Shown here: positions 4,909 through 56,962 of the stretch, in pieces
Position numbering within the stretch: the stretch's first letter is position 1
Layout of the letters: the number at the start of each line of letters is the position of its first letter
Source: Candidatus Promineifilaceae bacterium
GTDB taxonomy: Bacteria > Chloroflexota > Anaerolineae > Promineifilales > Promineifilaceae
Direction of reading: 5' to 3'
NCBI GenBank assembly: GCA_033722615.1
Contig: JAWVYQ010000001.1
Span: 21-64,020, forward strand
DNA length: 64,000 nt
Translations under genes and position numbers: made by a program
The notes under the pieces: model-generated
The model's database searches: none
Told to the model about the DNA's origin: nothing
What the model saw: only the letters and a program-made list of their open reading frames with translations

Positions 4909-7900
4909 ATGCCGGATGTACAGTTAGCGACAGCCAGCTCAAAATTACGCGCCTTACACGCCTTCCAGGAGGCGCTTGACGCTGCGTCGTCGCAGGCGGC
5001 CGTCTTTCGCCTCGTTTCCGATTTCGTCGAATTGCATCTTCAAAAGGCCTCTGCCTACTTTCACGAGCCTGACGTAGACCACGGGTCGCCGTCCGCTCCC
5101 GGCGTGCAGATTTCGCTCCCGCTGCGTCCCGACCTGCATCTGAGCCTGAGGCGAGGCGATCCCTTTACCGAAGATGAACTCGCCCTGGCCGAACTGGTTG
5201 CTTCCCTGCTGCGGCAGGCGCCCGCCCTTTCGCGGCCGGTTCGTTCCCACAGCGCTCTCACCCTCTTCCACGAACTCCGGCAGGCTATCGCTCACGCCCA
5301 TGACCTCGACGCCATCCTTTCGCTGTTGGAGTCTAGACTCCCCGACGCCTTTCCGGAGCTTTCTGCCGACATCTTCCTGGCCGAAAACGAAGAGGAGTGG
5401 GAGCAACGCGCTACGCGTCTCGGCCGTCTGGATGGGCCGCCCGCCGAACGCCGCGAAGAGGGGGAAAACGAGCAGGCCGACTGCATAGAAGCCCTCCACC
5501 GGGGAGAAACCCTGCTCCTGGACGAGGCTGGTCGCCGTGTGCCGGTTGGCGAAGCGCCTACCTCACCTCTTACCCGGGCCGTGATTCCCCTCCGTGTAGA
5601 AGAATCGCCCGTTGGCCTTCTCCACGCGGACGGCCGCGGTTACAATGCCCTCTCCGGCCAGGACGTCCTGTCTCTGGAGCTTCTGGCAGCAACCATCGCC
5701 ATCGCCCTTCGCACCGAACGCCTCGTCGGCGAAGCCCGGCAGCGGACCACCGAAATGGAGATGGTCCATGCCATGACCGAGTCGGCGCGCAACCTGAAAC
5801 CACTCCATCCTACCCTTGCCGAGATTCACGCTCAGATCGAGCAGGCTTTCGACGTGCGCGCCTTTCTGGTTGCCCTCTACGAGGTGGAGGAAGAGTTATT
5901 GACCTTTCCCTACGCCGTCGACGAAGGCGAGCCGTTGGCCGTTGAACCGGTCTCCGTCCATGATCAGGACAGCCTCTTTGCCTGGGTCGTCCGTCACAAT
6001 CGCCCCTTTATCACCGGCGACTGGCATCAGGATGAACGCCCGATGGCCGGCGTCGAACTCAAAGATGCCGTCCCCCACTCTGTTTTCTGCTACCCTCTCC
6101 GCATTGGGGATGAAGTCGTCGGTGCCTTTTCCGTCCAAAGCCACCGGCCGCACGTCTTTACCGACGACGACTACCGTCTCCTGACGTCGATAGCGGACCA
6201 GGTGGCCGTCATCGTCCGCAATGCCCGCCTCTACTCGACCACTCAGGGGTTGGTCGATAAGATTGCCCGCGAATATCTCACTGCTGCCTCTCTGCGCCAG
6301 GCCATTGCTTCCATGGGGACCTCTCTCGATCGGGAGGCCATTCTCGACTTCTTGCTCGTCTCGTTGGAAGATATGGTTGGTTACGACAGCGCCATCGTGA
6401 CCCTCATCGAGGACGAAGACGTCGTCACCTTCGCCCATCGTGTCGATGAAGACGGTGAGCCGGCGACCGTCGTCTCCGGCGGCGACGCCGAAACCTTGCT
6501 CGGCGGCCGTTTTGTTACCAGGATAATACGTTCCAAAGAGGCCATTCTGGTCGACGACGTGCGCGACGACCCTCAATGGGCGGACGGCATCCAGGACGAG
6601 GGCGTCGGTTCCCGCCTGGGCGTGCCCATGCTCGCCGGCGACGCTGTGACCGGTGTCCTGATTCTGGAGGATGAGCGGCCGGGTGCTTATGGACAGCGCG
6701 AGGCCTGGTTGGTTTCCGCCCTCGTCTCCCATGCCTCTCTCGCCGTGCAAAACGCCCGCCTGCATGAGGAGGTCCAGGACCAGCTTGACGAGTTATCCAC
6801 CCTCTACGAAGCCAGCAATGCCATTAACGCCAACCTGGATGAGGAAACCCTCCTGCGCACCGTCGTCGGGGAGATGGTGCGCGCCCTTGACGTCGATAGT
6901 TGCACCATTTTTGTCTGGAGCGAGAATCAGCAAGCGTTGCAAACGGCCGCCCATCAGCACCAGTTGGCGTCTGATGGTGAGGATGACGATCCGACTACCG
7001 TTGGTCTGGGCAGCCTTGGCGACCTTGAAGACAATCCTGTCGTCCGGCGCGTCCTCGACACTCAGGACGTTGGTCATTTGCACCGGGATACCGTCGCCTC
7101 CGACGAGGTCCGTGCACTGCTCGACGTTGCCGGCCTGGACATCCTGCTCCTGGTTCCCCTCGTGCGACGCGAACAGACGCTGGGCCTTCTCGCTCTGGGC
7201 CAGGCGGGAACCGATCGCCCCTTTACAGAGCGCGAATTACGCCTGACGCGCAATCTTGCAGCCCAGGTCGCCGTTGCTCTGGAGCACGCTCGCCTTTACT
7301 CGCAGGTTCGGCGGCGCGTCGAAGAGTTGTCCACCTTCCACCAGATCGTTCTGCAACTCAATACCCCGCTGGAGCTGGAGGTCGTCCTGGAAAACATTAC
7401 CGAGTCCGCACTCCAGCTTATCGGCGCCAACAACCTGCACATCTATCTCTACGATGACGACCAGGACGAATTCACCTTTTGCTCCGCCCTGTGGCGCGAC
7501 GGCCGCCGCACGCCGGCCGTCGCCGCCCCCCGCTCCGATGGCCTGACCGCCCGCGTTGTCCACGGTGGCGAAGCCATTATCGTCGACGACGCACCAGAAC
7601 ACGCGCTTTATCAGGGGCCGGAATCCTCTAACTGGGGCGTCTGCGCCATTGCCGGCTTCCCACTAAAGCATGGCGACCGCGTCATTGGGGCCTTTACCGT
7701 TACCTATCTGGAGCCCCACACCTTCACCCCGGATGAGTTGCTGCTCATGAACCTTCTGGCCGACCAGGCGTCTGTCGCCGTCGAAAACGCACGGCTCTTC
7801 GCCGAAGCCCAGCAGCGCTTGCGGAGCATGTCCGCTCTGGTCGATATGGCCAAACAGGTCACCGGCAACCTGAAAGTGGAGATGGTCATGCAGACAACGG

Positions 7901-19329: not shown

Positions 19330-19580
19330 CCAATCTCCGTCCGTGTATGTGTCGCCTGACGACATGTTGCTTGCCGGCAGCATAACATAAATTGGGACCA
19401 AAGGCAAGTTGTTCATGTTGTTCATGTTGGTCACGTTTTTCACTTTTTGCACGGGAGTTTGTGGATGGTGGGAAGTTGTTCGGGGTCACACCAGGCCGGC
19501 CGGCGTGGGAGACGCGGCTTGGGACATTATACCATAGTGAGAAGGTGAAAGATCGGTGAAAAACGGGCCAGATAGGCGGC

Positions 19581-19644
19581 AAAAAAAACGAGGTGGCCGG
19601 TCTCAGCGGGGAGCTGTCCGTACCACCTCTGGGCGGGGAGCAAT
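19581..19644 (-). ncRNA. candidate ~60-nt small RNA, copy A (C-rich 5' end, 14-bp interrupted hairpin with UCCCC loop, U8 tail)
   Basis: The minus strand reads ATTGCTCCCCGCCCA-GAGGTGG-ta-CGG-a-CAGC-tcccc-GCTG-aga-CCG-g-CCACCTC-g-TTTTTTTT. Upstream on the same strand are -35 TTGCGC (19671-19676), a 17-nt spacer and an extended -10 TGcTATAGT (19648-19656). A near-identical copy lies at 54551-54612. Confidence 0.4.
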
Positions 19645-19857
19645 TAAACTATAGCACAAACGGCGGCCGGGCGCAACTCGATTCACGCTCCAATTTTCCG
19701 CTCCCCTGCGCCCGTCAAATTGACTTGTACCGGGTTCCGCTTAGCGATGCCCGGTTTCCGGGAAAATGTGCCTTTCATAAGCAATCGCTTCATAAGCGAA
19801 CTGTTACTTCGCGGGCGTCGTGTGCCCACGTTCCGGGATGTCCTATAATAGGAGCCC

Positions 19858-21426
19858 ATGAACGATTCCAACCGCCCACTGAGCATTACCGGCAATAACC
19901 TGAAAGTTGACGACGTCGTCGCTGTGGCCCGCGGCCGCCCCGTCGCTCTCGATCCCGACGTTCTGCCCCGCGTTGAGCGTTCCCGGCGCGCCGTCGAGCA
20001 GTTGGTCGAAGAAGGGGCCGTGGCCTACGGTATCACCACCGGCTTCGGCCACTTCAAAGATAAGATTATCTCCCCCGACCAGACGGCCGCCCTCCAGCTC
20101 AACCTGGTACGCAGTCACGCCGTCGGCGTTGGCCCCGACCTGTCCGAGCCCGTCGTACGCGCGATGCTCCTGGTGCGGGCCAACACCCTAGCTAAGGGCT
20201 ATTCTGGCGTGCGCCCCGTCATTATCCAGACCCTCCTGGAGATGCTCAACCGGGGCGTCCACCCGCGCATTCCGTCCCAGGGCTCCCTGGGCGCCAGCGG
20301 CGACCTGGCCCCGCTGGCTCACCTGGCCCTCGTCCTCATCGGCGAGGGGGAGGCCGTCTATGAGGGCGAGCATTTGCCGGGGGATGAGGCCCTGCGCGCG
20401 GCCGGGTTGGAGCCGGTCACGCTGCGCGCCAAAGAGGGGCTGGCCCTGGTCAACGGCACGACGCAGATGGTGGGCCACGGCGCCCTCCTCGTGCGCCGGG
20501 CGATCAACCTTCTGCTCACGGCCGACGTCGCCGCTGCTCTTTCTCTGGAGGCCCTGAACGGCACCGCCCGCGCCTACGACGAGCGCGTGCACGCCGTGCG
20601 CCCTCACCCCCGCCAGATCGACGACGCCGCCTTGCTGCGCGCCGTCCTCGACGGCAGCCATTTCCTGCGCGGCCACGACTCCCTCAACGTGCAGGACGCT
20701 TACACTCTGCGCTGCGTGCCCCAGGTGCACGGCGCCGTGCGTGACGCCGTCGCCTATCTCCAATGGGTCATCGACATTGAACTCAACTCCGTCAACGACA
20801 ACCCCATCATTTTTGTGGATGAGGAAACGGGCGCCGTCGACGTCATCTCGGCCGGCAACTTCCACGGGGAGCCGGTGGCCATCGCCATGGATTACGCTGC
20901 GCTGGCCCTCACCGACCTGGGCAACATGAGCGAGCGGCGCGTGGAGCGTCTGGTAGACGCCGACACCAACGGCGGCGTGCTGCCGATGTTCCTCACGGAG
21001 CAGGGCGGCCTTAACAGCGGCTTCATGATGGCTCAGTACACGGCCGCGGCGCTGACATCCGAGAACAAAGTGTTGGCCCATCCTGCCAGTGCCGACTCCA
21101 TCCCCAGTAGCGCCAACACCGAAGATCACGTGAGCATGGGTCCCGCGGCCGTGCGCCAGACCGAGCAGATCCTTTCCCACGTGGAGAGTATCGTGGCCAT
21201 CGAGCTGCTGTGCGCCGCGCAAGGAATCGATTTCCGCCGGCGCAAGATGGGGCAGCCGGACGCCGACCTGGGGCGGGGAACGGCCGTGGCTTACGAACTC
21301 GTGCGCGACGCCGTCCCTTTTCTGGAAGAAGATGTCGCGCTGGCCCCCCACATCGAGCAGGTGCGGCAACTGGTCGCCGCGGGTACAATTAAAGAGATGG
21401 TTGAGGAGCGTCTGGACAGGGAATAA
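19858..21426 (+). CDS. hutH: histidine ammonia-lyase
   Basis: MIO-forming [12 protein letters not shown] motif. The selectivity dipeptide S-H in [11 protein letters not shown] is as in HAL rather than PAL or TAL. AGGAG RBS before the ATG. Confidence 0.88.
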
Positions 21427-50563: not shown

Positions 50564-50591
50564 ATTATAGCTTTTCGTCGCGACCTGTCAA
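50564..50591 (-). promoter_or_regulatory. sigma-70-type promoter for the regulator-hemA operon
   Basis: The minus strand reads TTGACA (50586-50591), a 16-nt spacer, then TATAAT (50564-50569). Both hexamers are perfect consensus. The -35 overlaps the hemY stop codon. Confidence 0.65.
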
Positions 50592-52030
50592 GCGATACCG
50601 TCTACCAGTTCATCTACTGTTTGTTGCGCCTGGTGCACACAATCCGGGATGCCGACACCGCGGTAGGGACTGCCGGTGACGTAGACGTGTTGGGGAAGGG
50701 CGGCTTCAATCGCTTCTACCCGTTCCAGATGGCCGACGTCGTACTGGGGGTTGGCGCGGGGCCAGCGGTAGATGCGGTGGAAAATGGGCCGCGCGTCGAT
50801 GCCCAGCAGGGCCTTCAATTCGCTGCGGACGACGGTCACCAGCTCTTCGTCGCCCACTTTCATCATCTGCGGGGTACGCGAGCCCCCGAAAAAGGCCCGC
50901 AGCAGCACGTAGCCGTCCGGCGCTCGCCGATCGAACTTTGTCGAGGTAATGGTGAGGGCGTTGATCGGTCGACGCTCGCTGCGCGGGATGACCAGGCCAA
51001 AGCCGTCCAGCGGCTGGTTGACTTCTTCGGCGCGATAGGCCAGAGAAATCGTGCCCGTGCTCACGTAACGGATGCGACGCAGGCCGCGCGCCGCGTCTGG
51101 GGCGACGTCTCCGACCAACTGCGCGGCGACGTGAGCGGGCACGGCCAGAATAACGGCGTCGGCCGTCAGCGTGTCGCCATCGCTCAGCGCCAGGGTGTAT
51201 CTCCCTTCCTCTCTGATCAGCCCCTTCACCGTCGTTTCCAGTCGGCAATCGCCGCTGAGGCGACTGCGCAGTTCTTCGACCAGTTCCTCCATGCCATCCT
51301 TGAAGGAGATGAACATGGACGGCGCCTGGCGGCCGTTTGAGGAGGGTTGCGGTCGCGACGCCCGCGCGCGGCGGGCGGCTAGCATTCCCTTGATCAGGCT
51401 CCCATGCTCGGCTTCGATCCGGCGGAAGCGCGGAAATGTGGCCATCAGGCTTTGCTTCTCGGCTTCCGCATTGTAGATGCCGGACATTAGCGGCTCGGCG
51501 ATCTTGTCTAGCGCCTCTTCGCCCAAGCGGCGCGTAATGAAATCGGCCAGCGTTTCATCCTCTTCATCTTTTTTGGGAGGGATGAATAGGTCCATGCCCA
51601 TGCGCAGTTTCCCAAGCGGGGAAATGAGCGGGGAGAGGGCAAAGGGCAGGAATTTGGTGGGCACGATAAGCAACACGCCGTCGGGAAGGGGAGTGGGCTT
51701 GCCGTTGTTCAGGACGAACACTTTTCGTTGCTCATCGTTGGTGGGCAGGAACCGGTCCTCCATCCCTAGCTCCCGCGCCAGTTGCAGGGCCCAAGGTTTC
51801 TGGGTGATGAAAGAATCGGGGCCACCCTCGACGATGAACGGTCCGTCGTCGACCACGTCCACACTCTCCGTCTTGATCTTCCCTCCCCAGCGGCCGGAGC
51901 GCTCGAGCAGGGTATAGGTGAGCTCGACGTCCTCCAGGGATACCTGTTGCTGTTGCAGGGTGTAGGCGGCACTGAGGCCCGCGATGCCGCCGCCAACGAT
52001 GGCCACGCGGAATTGCTTCCTTTCCGTCAT
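50588..52030 (-). CDS. hemY: protoporphyrinogen/coproporphyrinogen III oxidase (HemY/CgoX family, FAD-dependent)
   Basis: FAD-binding fold VAIVGGGIAGLSAAYTL and the GGKI..., EGGPDSF and MSGIYNAEAEKQSL regions typical of HemY. The start overlaps the upstream radical-SAM gene stop (ATGA). Confidence 0.88.
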   Translation of the reverse strand: MTERKQFRVAIVGGGIAGLSAAYTLQQQQVSLEDVELTYTLLERSGRWGGKIKTESVDVVDDGPFIVEGGPDSFITQKPWALQLARELGMEDRFLPTNDEQRKVFVLNNGKPTPLPDGVLLIVPTKFLPFALSPLISPLGKLRMGMDLFIPPKKDEEDETLADFITRRLGEEALDKIAEPLMSGIYNAEAEKQSLMATFPRFRRIEAEHGSLIKGMLAARRARASRPQPSSNGRQAPSMFISFKDGMEELVEELRSRLSGDCRLETTVKGLIREEGRYTLALSDGDTLTADAVILAVPAHVAAQLVGDVAPDAARGLRRIRYVSTGTISLAYRAEEVNQPLDGFGLVIPRSERRPINALTITSTKFDRRAPDGYVLLRAFFGGSRTPQMMKVGDEELVTVVRSELKALLGIDARPIFHRIYRWPRANPQYDVGHLERVEAIEAALPQHVYVTGSPYRGVGIPDCVHQAQQTVDELVDGIA

Positions 52031-53205
52031 ACGGCCGCCGCTTCCTCCCGCAGCGAGCGTGGTTGGTAGGTGCAGAAAGGCTCTTCACCCAGATAGTCGC
52101 CCGTCATGCCGTAAGCACGGGCCCGGCAGCCGCTACAAACCCGTTTGAACTCGCAGGCCCCGCACTTGCCGCCCAATAGATCGGGATCGCGCAGTTCGGC
52201 GAATAGCGGCGACTCTTCCCAGATCTCCTGTAACGGCTGGCGGCGCACGTTGCCCGCTTCAAGTGGCAGATAACCGCAGGGGAATACTTCTCCCCGGTGG
52301 CTGATAAAGGTCACGCCCGTTCCTGCCAGGCAGCCCTTGGTCATCGCGTTCATGGCCGTGCTGCCGCCGGGATGGCCCCGGTGCGCGCCGTCGCCGCCGT
52401 GCGGGTGGCCGCCCGCGTGGCGTTGCCGGCGCATGCTCTGTGGCCCCTGGCGAATGATGCCCTGTCGTCGCTCCTCGGCCTGCCGCTGGCGCACGATGCG
52501 GAAGTAGTGGGGGGCACACGTCGCTTTAAGTTCGATCTCTCCTTCCATCTCGGCGTCGTACATCCAGTTGAGTACGTCTTCATATTCGGCCGGCGAAATT
52601 TGCTGGTCGTCTGCGATCTCCACGCCGCACCCGACCGGCACTAGCAGGAAGAGGTGCAGGGCCACGGCGCCCAGCGACTTGGCCAACGCGAGCGTTTCCG
52701 GCATCTGATGGACGTTGTGACGGGCTACCGTCGTATTGATCTGGAAGGGAACGCCCTCCTCGCGCAGCGCTGTGATGCCCTTCACGGCCTGGTCAAAGGC
52801 GCCGCGCCCGCGGAATATGTCGTGGGTGGCGGCGTCGGCCCCGTCGAAGCTGACGCTAACGCGTCGAATGCCAGCTGCTTTAATCTTTTTCGCGACGCCC
52901 GCGTCGATCATCGTGCCGTTTGTGGCCAGGGCCACGATGATGTCCAGGTCGGTCGCGTGGCGGGCGATCTCGAAAATATCTCCGCGGAAAAGCGGTTCGC
53001 CGCCGGAAAGCACAAGAATGGGACGGGCGAATGACGCGATCTGCTCGACCATCTCCAGCGATTCGGCCGTCGTCAGATCGTGCGGCAACAACTGGTCGGC
53101 AATCGTTATGCGCCGACAGTGGATGCAGTTCAGGTTACACCCGGCCGTGGTTTCCCAGAAGATGAGGCGAGGAGGCGGATAAGCGGTGGCGTCGTCTTTT
53201 ATCAT
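52027..53205 (-). CDS. radical SAM/SPASM-domain protein, AhbD/NirJ-like
   Basis: CNLNCIHC radical-SAM cluster motif and GGEPL. The C-terminal SPASM-type Cys pattern is ATCAPHY...GCLAGTGVTFISHRGEVFPCGYL...GKCGACEFKRVCSGCRARAY...EPFC. Confidence 0.8.
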   Translation of the reverse strand: MIKDDATAYPPPRLIFWETTAGCNLNCIHCRRITIADQLLPHDLTTAESLEMVEQIASFARPILVLSGGEPLFRGDIFEIARHATDLDIIVALATNGTMIDAGVAKKIKAAGIRRVSVSFDGADAATHDIFRGRGAFDQAVKGITALREEGVPFQINTTVARHNVHQMPETLALAKSLGAVALHLFLLVPVGCGVEIADDQQISPAEYEDVLNWMYDAEMEGEIELKATCAPHYFRIVRQRQAEERRQGIIRQGPQSMRRQRHAGGHPHGGDGAHRGHPGGSTAMNAMTKGCLAGTGVTFISHRGEVFPCGYLPLEAGNVRRQPLQEIWEESPLFAELRDPDLLGGKCGACEFKRVCSGCRARAYGMTGDYLGEEPFCTYQPRSLREEAAAV

Positions 53206-53295
53206 GTGTGCCTTTTCCTAGAAGTTGTATCCACTTACGCACTTGACCGGAAAGTGAGAAATGACCAGAAATAGTGCGTTTGCCGGACCAGGCGA

Positions 53296-53322
53296 GCAGA
53301 AAAATCTAAGTAAGGTTATGCA
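53296..53322. promoter_or_regulatory. haem-cluster motif copy 2 (AAATCTAAGTAA-N3-TATGCA)
   Basis: gcagaaAAATCTAAGTAAggtTATGCA matches the box at 50534-50554 at 18 of 21 positions. It lies downstream of a promoter-like TTGCCT-N16-TATAGT and ~95 nt upstream of the radical-SAM start. Confidence 0.45.
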
Positions 53323-53352
53323 ATTCTATTTAAATGTATCCAGTCACATATG

Positions 53353-53380
53353 ACTATACCGGAAGCGGCGCGTCAGGCAA
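53353..53380 (-). promoter_or_regulatory. candidate promoter for the radical-SAM/hemY operon
   Basis: The minus strand reads TTGCCT (53375-53380), a 16-nt spacer, then TATAGT (53353-53358). Confidence 0.45.
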
Positions 53381-53473
53381 TATGACAAATGCCACTGATT
53401 GCCGGGACAGATGTCACTGACGGGACAGTTGAAGGTCAGAAAGCCTCAAGTGTCGTGGCTCCTCTGGTGCTAT

Positions 53474-54085
53474 TCAGGTCGAAAGCATGCGAGCTGCCAT
53501 GACGCCGCCCAACAGGCCCAGGAGGTGGGCTTCCCAGGAGACGCCCGGTTGCTGAGGGAAGATACCCCAGATCAGGCCGCCGTAGAAAATGGCTACAAAA
53601 ACGGCGACGAGCACGGCGTATCCGCTCCGTTCATAATATCCGCGCCAGAGCAGAAAGCCGAAGTAACCGAAGATGAGGCCGCTGGCGCCGATGTAGACAG
53701 AGCGGCCGGCGCCGAAGAACCACAGACCGACGCCGGTCACGAGCATTGTCGTGATCGTGACGGCGATGAAGTCGGCCACCCGCCGCAGCATTACCAGCCA
53801 GCCGAGGACGATAAAGGGGAGGGTGTTAGCGGCAACGTGGGCCAGACCGCCGTGCAGCAGGGGCATCATTAAAATCCCGCGTAGACCGATGGGCTGTCGG
53901 GGGATAACGCCGTAGGCGTTGAGCGCTTGGCCCAGAAGGAAGACGTCGGCCAGTTCCAGGACCCAGATAATGCCGACAAAGCTCCCCAGAATGGTTACCT
54001 GCGTTTGCAGGCGGTCAGCTGCCCGCCGCAACCGTTCTTGCTGTTCGTTCACAACATGCGCCTCTCGTTGCAAGTGGCCGGCCAA
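53474..54085 (-). CDS. rhomboid family intramembrane serine protease
   Basis: Six-TM profile. Motifs LLHGGLAHVAANT and the catalytic GASGLIFG, plus the downstream His in WEAHLLGLLGG. Confidence 0.85.
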   Translation of the reverse strand: MAGHLQREAHVVNEQQERLRRAADRLQTQVTILGSFVGIIWVLELADVFLLGQALNAYGVIPRQPIGLRGILMMPLLHGGLAHVAANTLPFIVLGWLVMLRRVADFIAVTITTMLVTGVGLWFFGAGRSVYIGASGLIFGYFGFLLWRGYYERSGYAVLVAVFVAIFYGGLIWGIFPQQPGVSWEAHLLGLLGGVMAARMLST

Positions 54086-54550
54086 AAGCGCCGGCCACCG
54101 GGGACGATTCTGCCCGTAATGTAGGGTACCTCCCCCGCAAAAGCAAAGGGCTCTCCTGTCCGCAGGCTTCCGCCCTTGCGGACGGCGGGCAGGGACGGAC
54201 CGACCTCTTGATCGGCGCCGACGGTCTCCATTCGCTTCGCTCGTGCGCGCGCAATTACACGGGGAACGGCCGCCGCGCTACGCGGACTATACAGCGTGGC
54301 GGGCCGGCCTTCCTTTTTCTGGGGCGCTACGCTAGTGGCGGGCGCAGTTGGTGTTGGGCCATGGTAAATGAGGCAGCTTGAGCGATTGCTCACCACCGAT
54401 CTTTGACGCTAACCTTTACTCGGCGCGGCCGCAGGGGTTGCCCTGCACCGCTAAATGAACCAGATTACGGAAAATGGATAGGTTAGAACTCTGTCAGGTG
54501 TGTTGGCCGGGGATGGGGAAAACGCGACCTGGCTAAGGGGTGCACACCAT

Positions 54551-54612
54551 AAAAAAGTGAGGTGGCCGGTACAGCGGGGGGCTGTCCGTGCCACCTCTGG
54601 GCGGGGAGCAAT
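54551..54612 (-). ncRNA. candidate ~60-nt small RNA, copy B
   Basis: The minus strand reads ATTGCTCCCCGCCCA-GAGGTGG-ca-CGG-a-CAGC-ccccc-GCTG-ta-CCG-g-CCACCTC-ac-TTTTTT. Upstream are -35 TTGCAT (54639-54644), a 17-nt spacer and an extended -10 TGgTATTCT (54616-54624). It matches copy A at 51 of 55 aligned positions, and all differences fall in unpaired positions. Confidence 0.4.
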
Positions 54613-54751
54613 GATAGAATACCATGTATTGAGGAAGAATGCAAATCCTTACTGAAATTCGGGTTATGAGCTTAAGGAATACTTTACACAATCGGGTATA
54701 ATAGCGTTTCCGGACGTATTTTGTATAGATTTCGGCGGCGGACCAGGGCCT

Positions 54752-56962
54752 CTACTCATAGATGAAGCGCTGAACGACGTTATGCAGGAATGTGTGGCGG
54801 GGAGAGCGGTGGGAGTGGACGAGAATCACGGTGCAGTCGGCCCTTTCTGTTATCCAATCTTCGAGTTCGCCAAAGGTGCCGCGGTGGAAGAAGCGGTGTT
54901 GGGAGGCATTCATCACGATGAGGTCTGCGTCGGCAAAGAGGTCTTGTGAGGGCCCGTTGCTACTATCCACACGCACGACGCGGCTTTCCGTAGGCACGGC
55001 GCAAAGCTCGTCGAGCTGCTCGTGGTAGGCTCGAATGGACGCTATCTGAGCGTCAGACGCGCCTTCGCCTACAGCTTGCACGAACTGGATGGAGGCCCGA
55101 TCGTGGGCGGCGATGGCGTTGGCCACGACGACTTTCAGCGGGTCAATGGGCCCGCGATTGGAAATGACGACGATGTTGTCGATCTCGGTCAGGCCCCTGT
55201 TTTTCATAATGAGACTGTCGCACGGGACGTGGTCCATCAGCCATTCAACATCGTCGCCGAAGGGCCAGATGCGGCGTGTCTCGTCCCCGACCTCGGTCAG
55301 GACGAGATTGTTGTTCTCGTGTTCTACGAAATTGCAGATGGCGCGGGGGGTGTCGTGGCTGACGATCTCGCCGACCTGGACAGGAACGCCCAGTTCATCG
55401 GCCAGCTGATTCACGCTCCTCTCAAAGGCAACGTCTTCCGGGCGCTCGGATTCGGCCGCTGCCCTGAGGCTCATCTGGTCGGGCACCTGCTCGAACTGAA
55501 TAACCTGGATCTGGCCGCCGCGCCCGCGGATGACGTCGGCCGCAACGTGCAGCAGCGTTTCTATCTCTTCAACCTTGGTGGCCCGGCGAATGGGAATTAG
55601 GATGCGGTAGGCGCCGACGGCGACGCGGGTCTCTTCGATGGTCCGTTTTTCGGTGCGGCCGCGGGCGGCATCCAGCGCTGCACCTTCCCGGCTGGCCCGC
55701 TCCTGGCCGTAAAAGCGGTACCAGAGGACGCCGGCGAGGATGATGCCCACCGCGCCAACCAGCGGTACAGTTCCCATGAAGAGGAGGAGGACGACGCCGC
55801 CGGCGACGCCGGCCAGTTGCACCCATGGATACCCCGGCGAGCGAAATACGGGCTTGTACTCAATGCGCTCGCTCTCGCGAAAGGCGATGAGGGCCACGTT
55901 GATCATCGAAAAGACGAGGATCTGAAAAGCGCTGGCCAACTTGGCCAAGTCCTGAACAGGGATAAAAGCGATGAGGAAGAGGATGGGAAGGCCGGTAGCC
56001 AGGATGGAGGGGATGGGTGTCCGGAAGCGACTGTTGATGCTCTGCAATATGGGCGGAGCCAGCCTGTTGCGGCTCATGGCGAAGGGATAGCGGGAAGAGG
56101 AGAGAATGCCGGCGTTGGCCATGCTGGTCAGCGCGAGGACGGCCGTGATCACAATGAGGATGAGGCCGACCGTGCCCAGGAATTGTTGGGCGCTATCGGC
56201 CATCGGCGTCAGCGTTTTCCCCAACTCGCCGACAGGGTTAACGCCGACGATGACGAAGACGATGAGTGTGTAAACGAGCATCATGACGACGACTGAAGCC
56301 AGAATGCCGATGGGGATGTTGCGGCCGGGATTCTCGACTTCTTCGGCGACGCTGGCGATCTTGGTAACGCCGGCGTAGGAGACAAAAACGAAACCAGTGG
56401 CTGCCAGCAGGCCGTCCAACCCCAGGTCGAAGAAAGGATGATAATGGTCTTGCTCGACGTAGGTGAGGCCGTCGGCCACGAAGAAGATGAGGACAAGGAG
56501 AACGGCCGATACGATAATGCTTTGTAGGCGCCCCGTTTGCTTGACGCCGAGGACGTTGACGCCGATGAGGAGCAGGGCGAGGAGGAGGGCGACGCCTTTC
56601 GTTGGGATGCTGTCGGTGAAGAGGAGAAGGTAGGCGCCCAGGCCGACGAGGGCAAAAGCGCTTTTGAAGACGAGGGAGAACCAGGCACCAATGCCGGCGA
56701 TGGTGCCTAACCTGGGTCCCATGGCGCGGTCAATATAGAGGTAGGTGCCGCCGGATTCGGGCATGGCAGTGGCCATCTCTGCCTTGCTGAGGGCAGCCGG
56801 AAGGACGATGAAGCCGGCGAGGAGGTAGGCAAGGATGACGGCCGGGCCGGCGATGGTGCTGGCGATACCCGGCAGGACGAAGATGCCGCTGCCGATCATG
56901 GCGCCAAGGCTGATAGTGATAACAGCGTACAGGCCAAGGTCTCGCTCGAGTTTTTTAGACAA
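54752..56962 (-). CDS. APC-superfamily amino acid permease fused to C-terminal tandem universal-stress-protein (USP) domains
   Basis: The N-terminal ~440 aa are polytopic, with ISLGAMIGSGIFVLPG. The C-terminal ~290 aa are soluble, with two USP-like alpha/beta modules. The apparent start is TTG at 56962, preceded by GGGGGA. Confidence 0.85.
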   Translation of the reverse strand: MSKKLERDLGLYAVITISLGAMIGSGIFVLPGIASTIAGPAVILAYLLAGFIVLPAALSKAEMATAMPESGGTYLYIDRAMGPRLGTIAGIGAWFSLVFKSAFALVGLGAYLLLFTDSIPTKGVALLLALLLIGVNVLGVKQTGRLQSIIVSAVLLVLIFFVADGLTYVEQDHYHPFFDLGLDGLLAATGFVFVSYAGVTKIASVAEEVENPGRNIPIGILASVVVMMLVYTLIVFVIVGVNPVGELGKTLTPMADSAQQFLGTVGLILIVITAVLALTSMANAGILSSSRYPFAMSRNRLAPPILQSINSRFRTPIPSILATGLPILFLIAFIPVQDLAKLASAFQILVFSMINVALIAFRESERIEYKPVFRSPGYPWVQLAGVAGGVVLLLFMGTVPLVGAVGIILAGVLWYRFYGQERASREGAALDAARGRTEKRTIEETRVAVGAYRILIPIRRATKVEEIETLLHVAADVIRGRGGQIQVIQFEQVPDQMSLRAAAESERPEDVAFERSVNQLADELGVPVQVGEIVSHDTPRAICNFVEHENNNLVLTEVGDETRRIWPFGDDVEWLMDHVPCDSLIMKNRGLTEIDNIVVISNRGPIDPLKVVVANAIAAHDRASIQFVQAVGEGASDAQIASIRAYHEQLDELCAVPTESRVVRVDSSNGPSQDLFADADLIVMNASQHRFFHRGTFGELEDWITERADCTVILVHSHRSPRHTFLHNVVQRFIYE

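Follow-up and report, generated by a model that had tools for sequence, protein, structure and literature searches.

Sibling genes for small regulatory RNAs are known from several bacterial groups, as in CcsR/'cuckoo' of the Alphaproteobacteria, LhrC1-5 of Listeria and Yfr2 of the cyanobacteria. Yfr2 is also on record in PMC6778093. Another cyanobacterial RNA, Yfr1, is 54-69 nt long and combines an ultraconserved, unpaired CU-rich 11-mer, ACUCCUCACAC, with a GC terminator hairpin (PMC2190773). In Actinobacteria, the 6C RNA (B11 in mycobacteria) binds its targets through C-rich loops at G-rich mRNA sites (PMC6486639), and in Bacillota, RsaE/RoxS directs C-rich motifs against the G-rich and Shine-Dalgarno regions of several mRNAs (PMC6158497, PMC5419742, PMC8216469). 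Here we describe two copies, A and B, of a short element in a 64,000-nt stretch of the Candidatus Promineifilaceae contig JAWVYQ010000001.1 (the window), which we assign, from comparison of sequences, to a new small RNA family with a C-rich, accessible single-stranded segment as in the class of 6C, RsaE/RoxS and Yfr1. Both copies are minus-strand elements encoding an RNA of 59-61 nt (54609-54551 for copy B and 19641-19581 for copy A); all positions are window coordinates, and both copies are read on the minus strand.

The family resembles Yfr1 in size class, in its unpaired, conserved C/U-rich motif of 11-12 nt, in its GC-rich Rho-independent terminator with a U-tail, and in being conserved across a clade while the remaining sequence is free to vary. 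However, there is no sequence similarity and no Rfam match for the family, and the phyla differ. Moreover, Yfr1 has a 5' stem-loop before its motif and is usually a single gene, whereas here the motif forms the extreme 5' end, followed by one hairpin, and up to 6 paralogues occur per genome. The likeness to 6C lies in the high-GC hosts and in the loop, where a C-G pair closes CCC or CCCC(C), but 6C is a single-copy gene whose RNA forms two hairpins, with at least six C in each loop, and lacks a C-rich 5' tail. Membership of 6C (RF01066) was rejected, given the one hairpin, its loop of 4-5 nt, the lack of a cmscan match and the Chloroflexota carriers. With RsaE/RoxS the family shares a C-rich single-stranded motif and an intrinsic terminator at the RNA end, but RsaE/RoxS is ~100 nt long with several stem-loops and three or four C-rich regions, is single copy and belongs to another phylum, and the Chloroflexota family has no Rfam match. 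Near-identical paralogues, each with a C/U-rich unpaired motif and its own terminator, recall CcsR/'cuckoo', LhrC1-5 and Yfr2. Those siblings are often in tandem or under one common regulator, whereas the copies described here are dispersed under individually diverged sigma-70-type promoters; sequence and architecture differ as well, a comparison that extends to the negative Rfam scan.

Copies A and B and their relatives

It is very probable, in our judgment, that copies A and B belong to a real, independently transcribed RNA gene family. An initial annotation of the window, made from the letters alone, had proposed a small RNA gene at both places, and its description of one architecture for both (promoter, three-segment hairpin and U-run) is accurate when read directly from the sequence. 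For copy B, the -35 TTGCAT, the 17-nt spacer and the extended -10 TGgTATTCT are all as claimed, and the promoter does lie ~110 nt past the permease stop, the -35 starting 108 nt after the stop at 54752. Its distance of four nucleotides from the -10 to ATTGC needs correction, since that motif begins three nucleotides past the -10 hexamer: the hexamer is followed by ATC, then ATTGCTCCCCGCCCA, and G1, the presumed first nucleotide of the RNA, is 54609. The full RNA of copy B reads GCUCCCCGCCCA-GAGGUGGCACGGACAGC-CCCCC-GCUGUACCGGCCACCUC-AC-UUUUUU, and its hairpin consists of 8 bp, an A bulge, 3 bp, 5 bp and the CCCCC loop, with a further A bulge on the 3' side. A 22-mer, ATTGCTCCCCGCCCAGAGGTGG, is identical in the two copies and has exactly 2 occurrences in the window, with 0 expected from 100 shuffles; the flanking sequences of copies A and B do not align. 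The minimum free energy (MFE) is -29.3 kcal/mol for copy B (z = -6.1) and -23.7 kcal/mol for copy A (z = -2.95). When the window was searched with the family covariance model, the two copies scored 83.1 and 75.4 bits and the next-best match 12.6, and with the filters off no further diverged copies were found in the window beyond these two.

Promoters were assessed across the family by taking the best combination of -35, spacer and -10 (with TG extension) in which the -10 hexamer ends 3-9 nt before G1, for all copies with at least 60 nt of upstream sequence (n = 39). All 39 scored 8-12 out of 13 (mean 9.6), against a mean of 5.1 (standard deviation 1.1) at 5000 random positions in the same loci, 2.1% of which reach 8. 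The gap from the end of the -10 hexamer to G1 measures 6 nt in 21 copies, 7 nt in 15 and 8 nt in 3. A spacer of 16-18 nt separates the -35 from the -10, which is often TG-extended, and apart from the hexamers the family shows no conserved sequence here, either between them or further upstream. Every copy is thereby predicted to own a sigma-70-type promoter at a fixed distance, and because the -10 hexamer ends 6-8 nt upstream, this geometry would place the transcription start at or beside G1. The promoter evidence is modest for single copies and strong only across the family. Copy B scores 9/13, a score of at least 9 being found at 0.4% of the random positions, and a generic consensus promoter/terminator scanner flagged neither copy, as the -35 matches only 3/6 and the terminators are bulged.

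Relatives were collected in two scans. The first searched 185,579 species-representative genomes with a key consisting of the tail, then 30-44 free bases, then TTTTT, and returned 39 loci, 37 of them true, in 10 metagenome-assembled genomes (MAGs) with 1-6 copies each; loci in Pseudomonas and Rhodanobacteraceae had no hairpin and were set aside as chance matches. The carrier MAGs are labelled Ardenticatenaceae, Promineifilaceae, Anaerolineae, Chloroflexota and 'Sulfomarinibacteraceae', and the NCBI taxonomy places both Ardenticatenaceae and Promineifilaceae under the class Ardenticatenia. The 'Sulfomarinibacteraceae' MAG (DATHSI...; loci L002, L028, L034, L036, L037 and L038), nominally Acidobacteriota, carries six copies. 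Since its loci are syntenic with those of Ardenticatenaceae MAGs and its HutH is 80% identical to that of the window, the label is probably wrong, or the bin is mixed.

As the first scan required the tail, the second was made to remove this ascertainment bias. It searched metagenomes with a hairpin-only key, CAGAGGTGG, 20-30 free bases and GGCCACCTCNNTTTT, which left the ten 5'-most tail positions free. All 28 loci that it returned were family members, and 27 of the 28 had the tail GCUCCCC(G/C)CC(CA); the tail forms were GCUCCCCGCC in 21, GCUCCCCCCC in 5, a one-base-shorter form in 2 and GAUAACCCCC in 1 (L054). Because a hairpin-only search recovers the tail in this way, the C-rich tail is conserved in its own right, irrespective of the search key.

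A covariance model, R1, built from 36 distinct sequences and run over all the sequence gathered, found 70 copies (59 distinct) at 50-87 bits, with the next scores at 20 or below and nothing between. Two further copies, beyond the 70, are positional orthologues of the window copies in their nearest relatives (L068 and L073). The family RNA is 56-61 nt long. Outside the window the only degenerate members are those at L013:2871-2929 (+) and L049:5681-5740 (+), neither of which has a proper U-run; the L049 copy has no recognisable promoter, two extra bases after the tail and a compensated change in its basal helix (GAGGAGG/CCUCCUC). These two may be decaying members.

No gathering-level match to the 4227 covariance models of Rfam 15 was found anywhere in the window, and at E <= 10 nothing overlaps copy A, copy B or 8 other members. 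ARAGORN reported no tRNA and no tmRNA in the window, neither the phage and plasmid collections (BLASTN) nor the viral contigs (scan) held a family match, and the literature search turned up neither the sequence itself nor a study of such small RNAs in Ardenticatena or Chloroflexi. By these searches the family is undescribed; it is multi-copy and restricted to Ardenticatenia-type Chloroflexota.

Table 1. Features of copies A and B and the genes next to copy B (window coordinates)
Feature	Position	Strand	Evidence and remarks
Copy B -35 hexamer TTGCAT	54639..54644	-	sequence; identical hexamer in positional orthologue L068; part of family-wide promoter signal
Copy B extended -10 TGgTATTCT (hexamer 54621-54616)	54616..54624	-	spacer 17 nt; 6 nt before G1
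Copy B small RNA, 59 nt, G1 to U-run end	54551..54609	-	covariance model 83.1 bits, E = 7e-20; start placed from -10 spacing
Copy B single-stranded C-rich 5' tail GCUCCCCGCCCA, proposed seed	54598..54609	-	family conservation, MFE folds, hairpin-anchored scan
Copy B bulged hairpin	54559..54597	-	helices GAGGUGGC/GCCACCUC, CGG/CCG, ACAGC/GCUGU; loop CCCCC
Copy B U-run, U6; with hairpin, predicted intrinsic terminator	54551..54556	-	sequence
Copy A -35 hexamer TTGCGC	19671..19676	-	sequence; hexamer kept in orthologue L073
Copy A extended -10 TGcTATAGT (hexamer 19653-19648)	19648..19656	-	spacer 17 nt; 6 nt to G1; score 9/13
Copy A small RNA, 61 nt	19581..19641	-	covariance model 75.4 bits; tail 19641-19630, hairpin 19629-19590, U8 19588-19581
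Amino-acid-permease/Usp fusion gene, upstream of copy B	54752-56962	-	Pfam
Rhomboid gene, downstream of copy B	53474-54085	-	Pfam

Hairpin, strand and C-rich tail

The hairpin is preserved by compensatory change. Among the 59 distinct sequences, 93.6% of the cells are consistent with the standard pairing, compared to 23-55% after a shift of the 3' partners by 1-3 columns. Changes on both sides are found in 7 of the 16 pairs (78 cells), which 0 of 500 shuffles reach; the covariation is similar on a MAFFT alignment, and RNAalifold agrees on 12 pairs. Most of it is held by three apical pairs, in which 18, 20 and 29 sequences are compensated. In the near-invariant basal helix, GAGGUGG/CCACCUC, only 3 sequences of 59 are compensated (U-A in 56, C-G in 2 and A-U in 1). 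The loop is (U)SCCC, 4-5 nt long, with a near-invariant CCC and a fixed closing C-G pair, and the 1-nt indels found in it between members break any conserved reading frame, including a small open reading frame (ORF) from a GUG at nt 16, which was therefore rejected.

The pairing also indicates which strand is the RNA. U·G pairs occur between positions 22 and 48 in 36 of the 59 members and between 24 and 47 in 11; on the other strand these would be C·A mismatches, and the reverse strand scores only 12-15 bits under the covariance model. For both reasons, the C-rich strand is taken as the RNA strand. The U-run has at least five residues in 57 of 59 members (range 5-8), and the family hairpin is predicted to double as the intrinsic terminator of the RNA.

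The tail, GCUCCCC(G/C)CCCA, has 12 nt and varies only at position 8, where 51 of the 59 distinct sequences have G, 6 have C and 2 lack the base; the sole outlier is L054 (GAUAACCCCCCA). It is unpaired in the MFE fold of 55/59. Together, the promoters in 39/39 copies, the compensatory changes in the hairpin and the conservation of the tail support what the two window copies had suggested to the initial annotation, namely an independently promoted, structure-preserving small RNA family.

Genomic context and possible modes of action

The genes next to the copies, called crudely from third-codon-position GC content (GC3), follow no pattern. Upstream, 33 of 61 copies have a co-directional neighbour and 28 an opposite-strand one; downstream, the same split is 31 to 29 (n = 60), and at 13 copies the genes on both sides are opposite-strand. 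All-against-all clustering and Pfam found no common neighbouring gene. Among the co-directional downstream genes are those for radical SAM/SPASM, DUF892, DUF7019, GntR, luciferase-like oxidoreductase, response regulator, DUF3375, RpiR, CN hydrolase, esterase, PadR and rhomboid functions, which have nothing in common. The orientation of neighbours appears to be random, and the element would be a free-standing unit, not an untranslated region. The flanks of the copies are unrelated, save for promoter-proximal and neighbouring promoter segments common with positional orthologues. Paralogues with their neighbours kept between MAGs are L014/L038, L022/L037, L025/L034, L009/L016, L017/L030 and L024/L026.

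The window copies have such positional orthologues too. In L068, the orthologue of copy B, the permease is 88% identical in protein and 84% in DNA; beyond it only the promoter and the RNA align (94 nt at 83%), which speaks for selection on the element, and a histidine kinase gene is inserted between permease and RNA. L073, the orthologue of copy A, lies between padR and hutH like copy A itself, with HutH 93% identical. Both promoter hexamers are present, TGCTATTGT standing where copy A carries its extended -10, and ~140 nt of the window padR/hutH spacer are missing. In more distant relatives, the element is absent from the same positions.

One could read the element as a repeated terminator, a REP-like (repetitive extragenic palindromic) sequence or a miniature mobile element without an RNA function, copy B being a mere permease terminator. 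A hairpin with a U-run is indeed a canonical intrinsic terminator, the element is repeated within genomes, and copy B lies 142 nt downstream of the co-directional permease gene, whose terminator it may double as. We nevertheless regard this reading as very improbable. Every copy with upstream sequence has a promoter at a fixed distance (39/39), and the conserved single-stranded 12-mer before the stem plays no part in termination. The 28 of 61 copies with a divergent upstream neighbour include copy A, which, set in the spacer of the divergent padR (-) and hutH (+) genes (Pfam), has no upstream co-directional gene to terminate; for this reason the hairpin is not simply the terminator of an upstream gene, as the initial annotation had held for copy B and the permease. 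As for the mobile or REP element that it had kept in view, there are only 1-6 copies per MAG, with unrelated flanks, no terminal repeats and no duplicated flanks, no phage, plasmid or viral matches, and paralogues that are syntenic between genomes (the first three pairs listed above, copy B with L068 and copy A with L073).

A cis-acting leader or attenuator, in which the promoter would drive the downstream gene and a conditional terminator would be relieved by a factor binding the C-rich tail, has more in its favor but is still improbable. The 31 co-directional downstream genes are often 120-200 nt away, and only ~14-65 nt separate the U-run from an esterase start codon in L067, L053 and L040, with little or no promoter room. 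Copy B itself is followed, after 465 nt, by co-directional rhomboid, radical SAM/SPASM and amine oxidase genes, and radical SAM/SPASM genes come after the element in L007 and L039 too. On the other side, the downstream gene is convergent at 29/60 copies, 13 copies are enclosed by opposite-strand genes, the downstream genes are without a functional theme, and no conserved antiterminator fold is seen, the sole candidate, CCGCC-CAGA-GGUGG, being broken in the C8 tail variants (by inspection). Furthermore, padR has an independent promoter, TGgTATAAT, after copy A, kept in L073, and even the nearest relative shows no conservation of the 465 nt that follow copy B. A riboswitch or cis-regulatory leader was rejected on the same orientations (31 vs 29), the unrelated functions and the lack of an alternative fold, with the three esterase loci as the exception. 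The lineage of L040, L053 and L067 has the C8 tail variant (GCUCCCCCCCCA), and its downstream gene encodes an alpha/beta-hydrolase (carboxylesterase); in L067 the gap to the esterase leaves no room for a separate promoter. Nor is there a conserved downstream element of the family, a candidate for which was reduced to a short motif, TTTCGCATAGTG, of one orthologue group. This motif stands 15-20 nt after the U-run in L014, L022, L033 and L038 (and L008), with nothing conserved beyond it, and might be the -10 region of an adjacent promoter.

By analogy with Yfr1, 6C or RsaE/RoxS, the RNA is most likely a trans-acting riboregulator whose C-rich tail and loop do the pairing. We propose such pairing because the architecture (C-rich tail, C-run in the loop, terminator and siblings) matches that of known riboregulators. 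The RNA would act in trans on a particular group of mRNAs. Its exposed C-rich tail, probably with the help of the CCC loop, would pair with their G-rich sites, which would typically lie in or close to the Shine-Dalgarno region. Pairing would lower translation or alter mRNA stability, and siblings whose promoters have diverged in different ways could respond to different inputs. For the whole of this, paralogous free-standing RNA genes encoding a trans-acting pairing regulator, we estimate a probability of roughly 0.5; the base-pairing mechanism, scored as a part, is tentative and would find us slightly on the doubting side. The existence of the gene family is established about as well as a comparison of sequences permits, and the mechanism is proposed by analogy.

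Several results weigh against the pairing regulator. Tail complements with up to two mismatches number 15 in the window, where 15.6 are expected, and 8-10-mer tail complements are not enriched in ~0.5 Mb of related loci (for 10-mers, 10 vs 21 +/- 16 with shuffled tails). Against 52 translation-initiation regions of relatives the tail averages -8.5 kcal/mol, and against coding windows -8.9 kcal/mol (p = 0.68), whereas the anti-Shine-Dalgarno sequence does prefer the same 52 regions. Since the tail shows no preference for initiation regions, it is not a general Shine-Dalgarno binder and, if it pairs, would serve a specific regulon. These target searches were low-powered, the available sequence being far too little for a genome-wide comparative test. 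The basal helix is more invariant than a purely structural terminator stem needs to be, a hint that a protein or a cellular machine may recognise its specific sequence. Both ends of the RNA are inferred from sequence, and the esterase start 14-65 nt after the U-run in the orthologous loci L040, L053 and L067 means that some copies may also act as read-through leaders. As a single case, GGGGGAGCC in L058, 12-24 nt after the U-run, perfectly complements the tail of the same RNA (GGCUCCCCC), either by chance or as a local pairing partner.

A rival reading is that the RNA binds a protein or machine instead and acts as its sponge, decoy or cofactor. In this case the tail, the basal helix and the CCC loop would be read in a sequence-specific way by a protein, the ribosome or RNA polymerase, and several strong promoters would supply enough RNA to titrate or equip this partner. 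Such a role, which we consider unlikely though not negligible, would suit the 19 consecutive nt (tail plus basal 5' strand) and the CCACCUC that are near-fixed across two orders while the apical stem drifts with compensation, and it would suit the lack of enrichment of complementary sites. The basal helix GAGGUG/CACCUC also has the sequence of a Shine-Dalgarno/anti-Shine-Dalgarno duplex, a resemblance that involves the 16S 3' end. However, no conserved protein gene adjoins the copies, known bacterial RNA-binding protein motifs such as GGA for CsrA are not present, invariant seeds are also typical of small RNAs that pair with many targets, and the target searches had very low power. For the ultraconserved motif of Yfr1, its authors likewise left protein binding possible (PMC2190773).

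A stricter form of this idea, in which the RNA targets no mRNA at all and is instead a ligand dedicated to the machinery of translation or transcription, or to one RNA-binding protein, is in our view quite unlikely. Its basis is that the basal helix GAGGUGG/CCACCUC mirrors a Shine-Dalgarno/anti-Shine-Dalgarno duplex, that the tail (CUCCCCG-C-CCA) looks like the acceptor stem of a tRNA on its 3' strand, with NCCA added, and that 19 contiguous nt are invariant across two orders, more than a seed needs. If true, Ardenticatenia would possess their own new class of housekeeping-type RNA, abundant and multi-copy.

If instead the tail pairs with G-rich ribosome-binding sites, as in the trans-acting regulator that we favor, a solution that arose independently in Actinobacteria, Bacillota, Alphaproteobacteria and Cyanobacteria would extend to another phylum; binding to a protein or the ribosome would make the family a new RNA class. 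No described regulatory small RNA was found, in Rfam 15 or the literature, for this clade, which includes the filamentous Promineifilaceae and the Ardenticatenaceae, and the family offers a clean entry point, being short, sharply defined and multi-copy, with promoter, structure and strand evidence together. Model R1 finds it without false positives in the data searched, and the predictions for the 5' end, seed and terminator have single-nucleotide resolution. The genus Ardenticatena is in culture, and experimental work in it may be feasible, provided that its genome carries the family.

Surroundings of the two copies

The initial annotation had set copy B in a 665-nt ORF-free region and thought that further non-coding elements might lie in 54086-54550. 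Strictly, the region does contain mechanical ORFs (e.g. 54049-54396, 115 aa), but none has support. There is no indication of further non-coding elements. The scan of 54086-54550 with Rfam covariance models, which it had suggested, gave nothing at E <= 10 but one chance-level match on the other strand; the folding is ordinary (z = -0.56), the stretch does not align to the nearest relative (L068), and its mechanical ORFs have Arg/Pro/Ala-rich translations. A further non-coding RNA in this stretch was rejected on these four grounds. At its edge, a perfect 9-bp hairpin, GTGGCCGGC-GCTTTTG-GCCGGCCAC (54074-54098, minus strand), overlaps the TTG at 54085, the earliest codon at which the rhomboid gene could start, and has no U-run.

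The rhomboid, radical SAM/SPASM and amine oxidase genes downstream of copy B form a co-directional cluster (50588-54085, minus strand) that may serve peptide maturation, no precursor gene having been identified in it. The radical SAM/SPASM genes found downstream of the RNA elsewhere lie at 1996-3252 in L007 and at 216-1574 in L039.

Next to copy A, hutH appears to be leaderless or nearly so: at 19844-19860 on the plus strand, a TATAAT (19844-19849) ends 8 nt before the ATG at 19858, a layout kept in three relatives (L073, L074 and L075, near 3001). Within 19526-19563 on the minus strand, the padR promoter TGgTATAAT (19534-19526) is preceded by a direct repeat, TTTCAC...TTTCAC, and both are kept in L073; the repeat is probably an autoregulatory operator for PadR. 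Finally, past a few close Chloroflexota-type matches, the best homologues of the permease/Usp protein (54752-56962) are haloarchaeal, at 52-58% identity over the full length, which suggests inter-domain transfer or a saline habitat.

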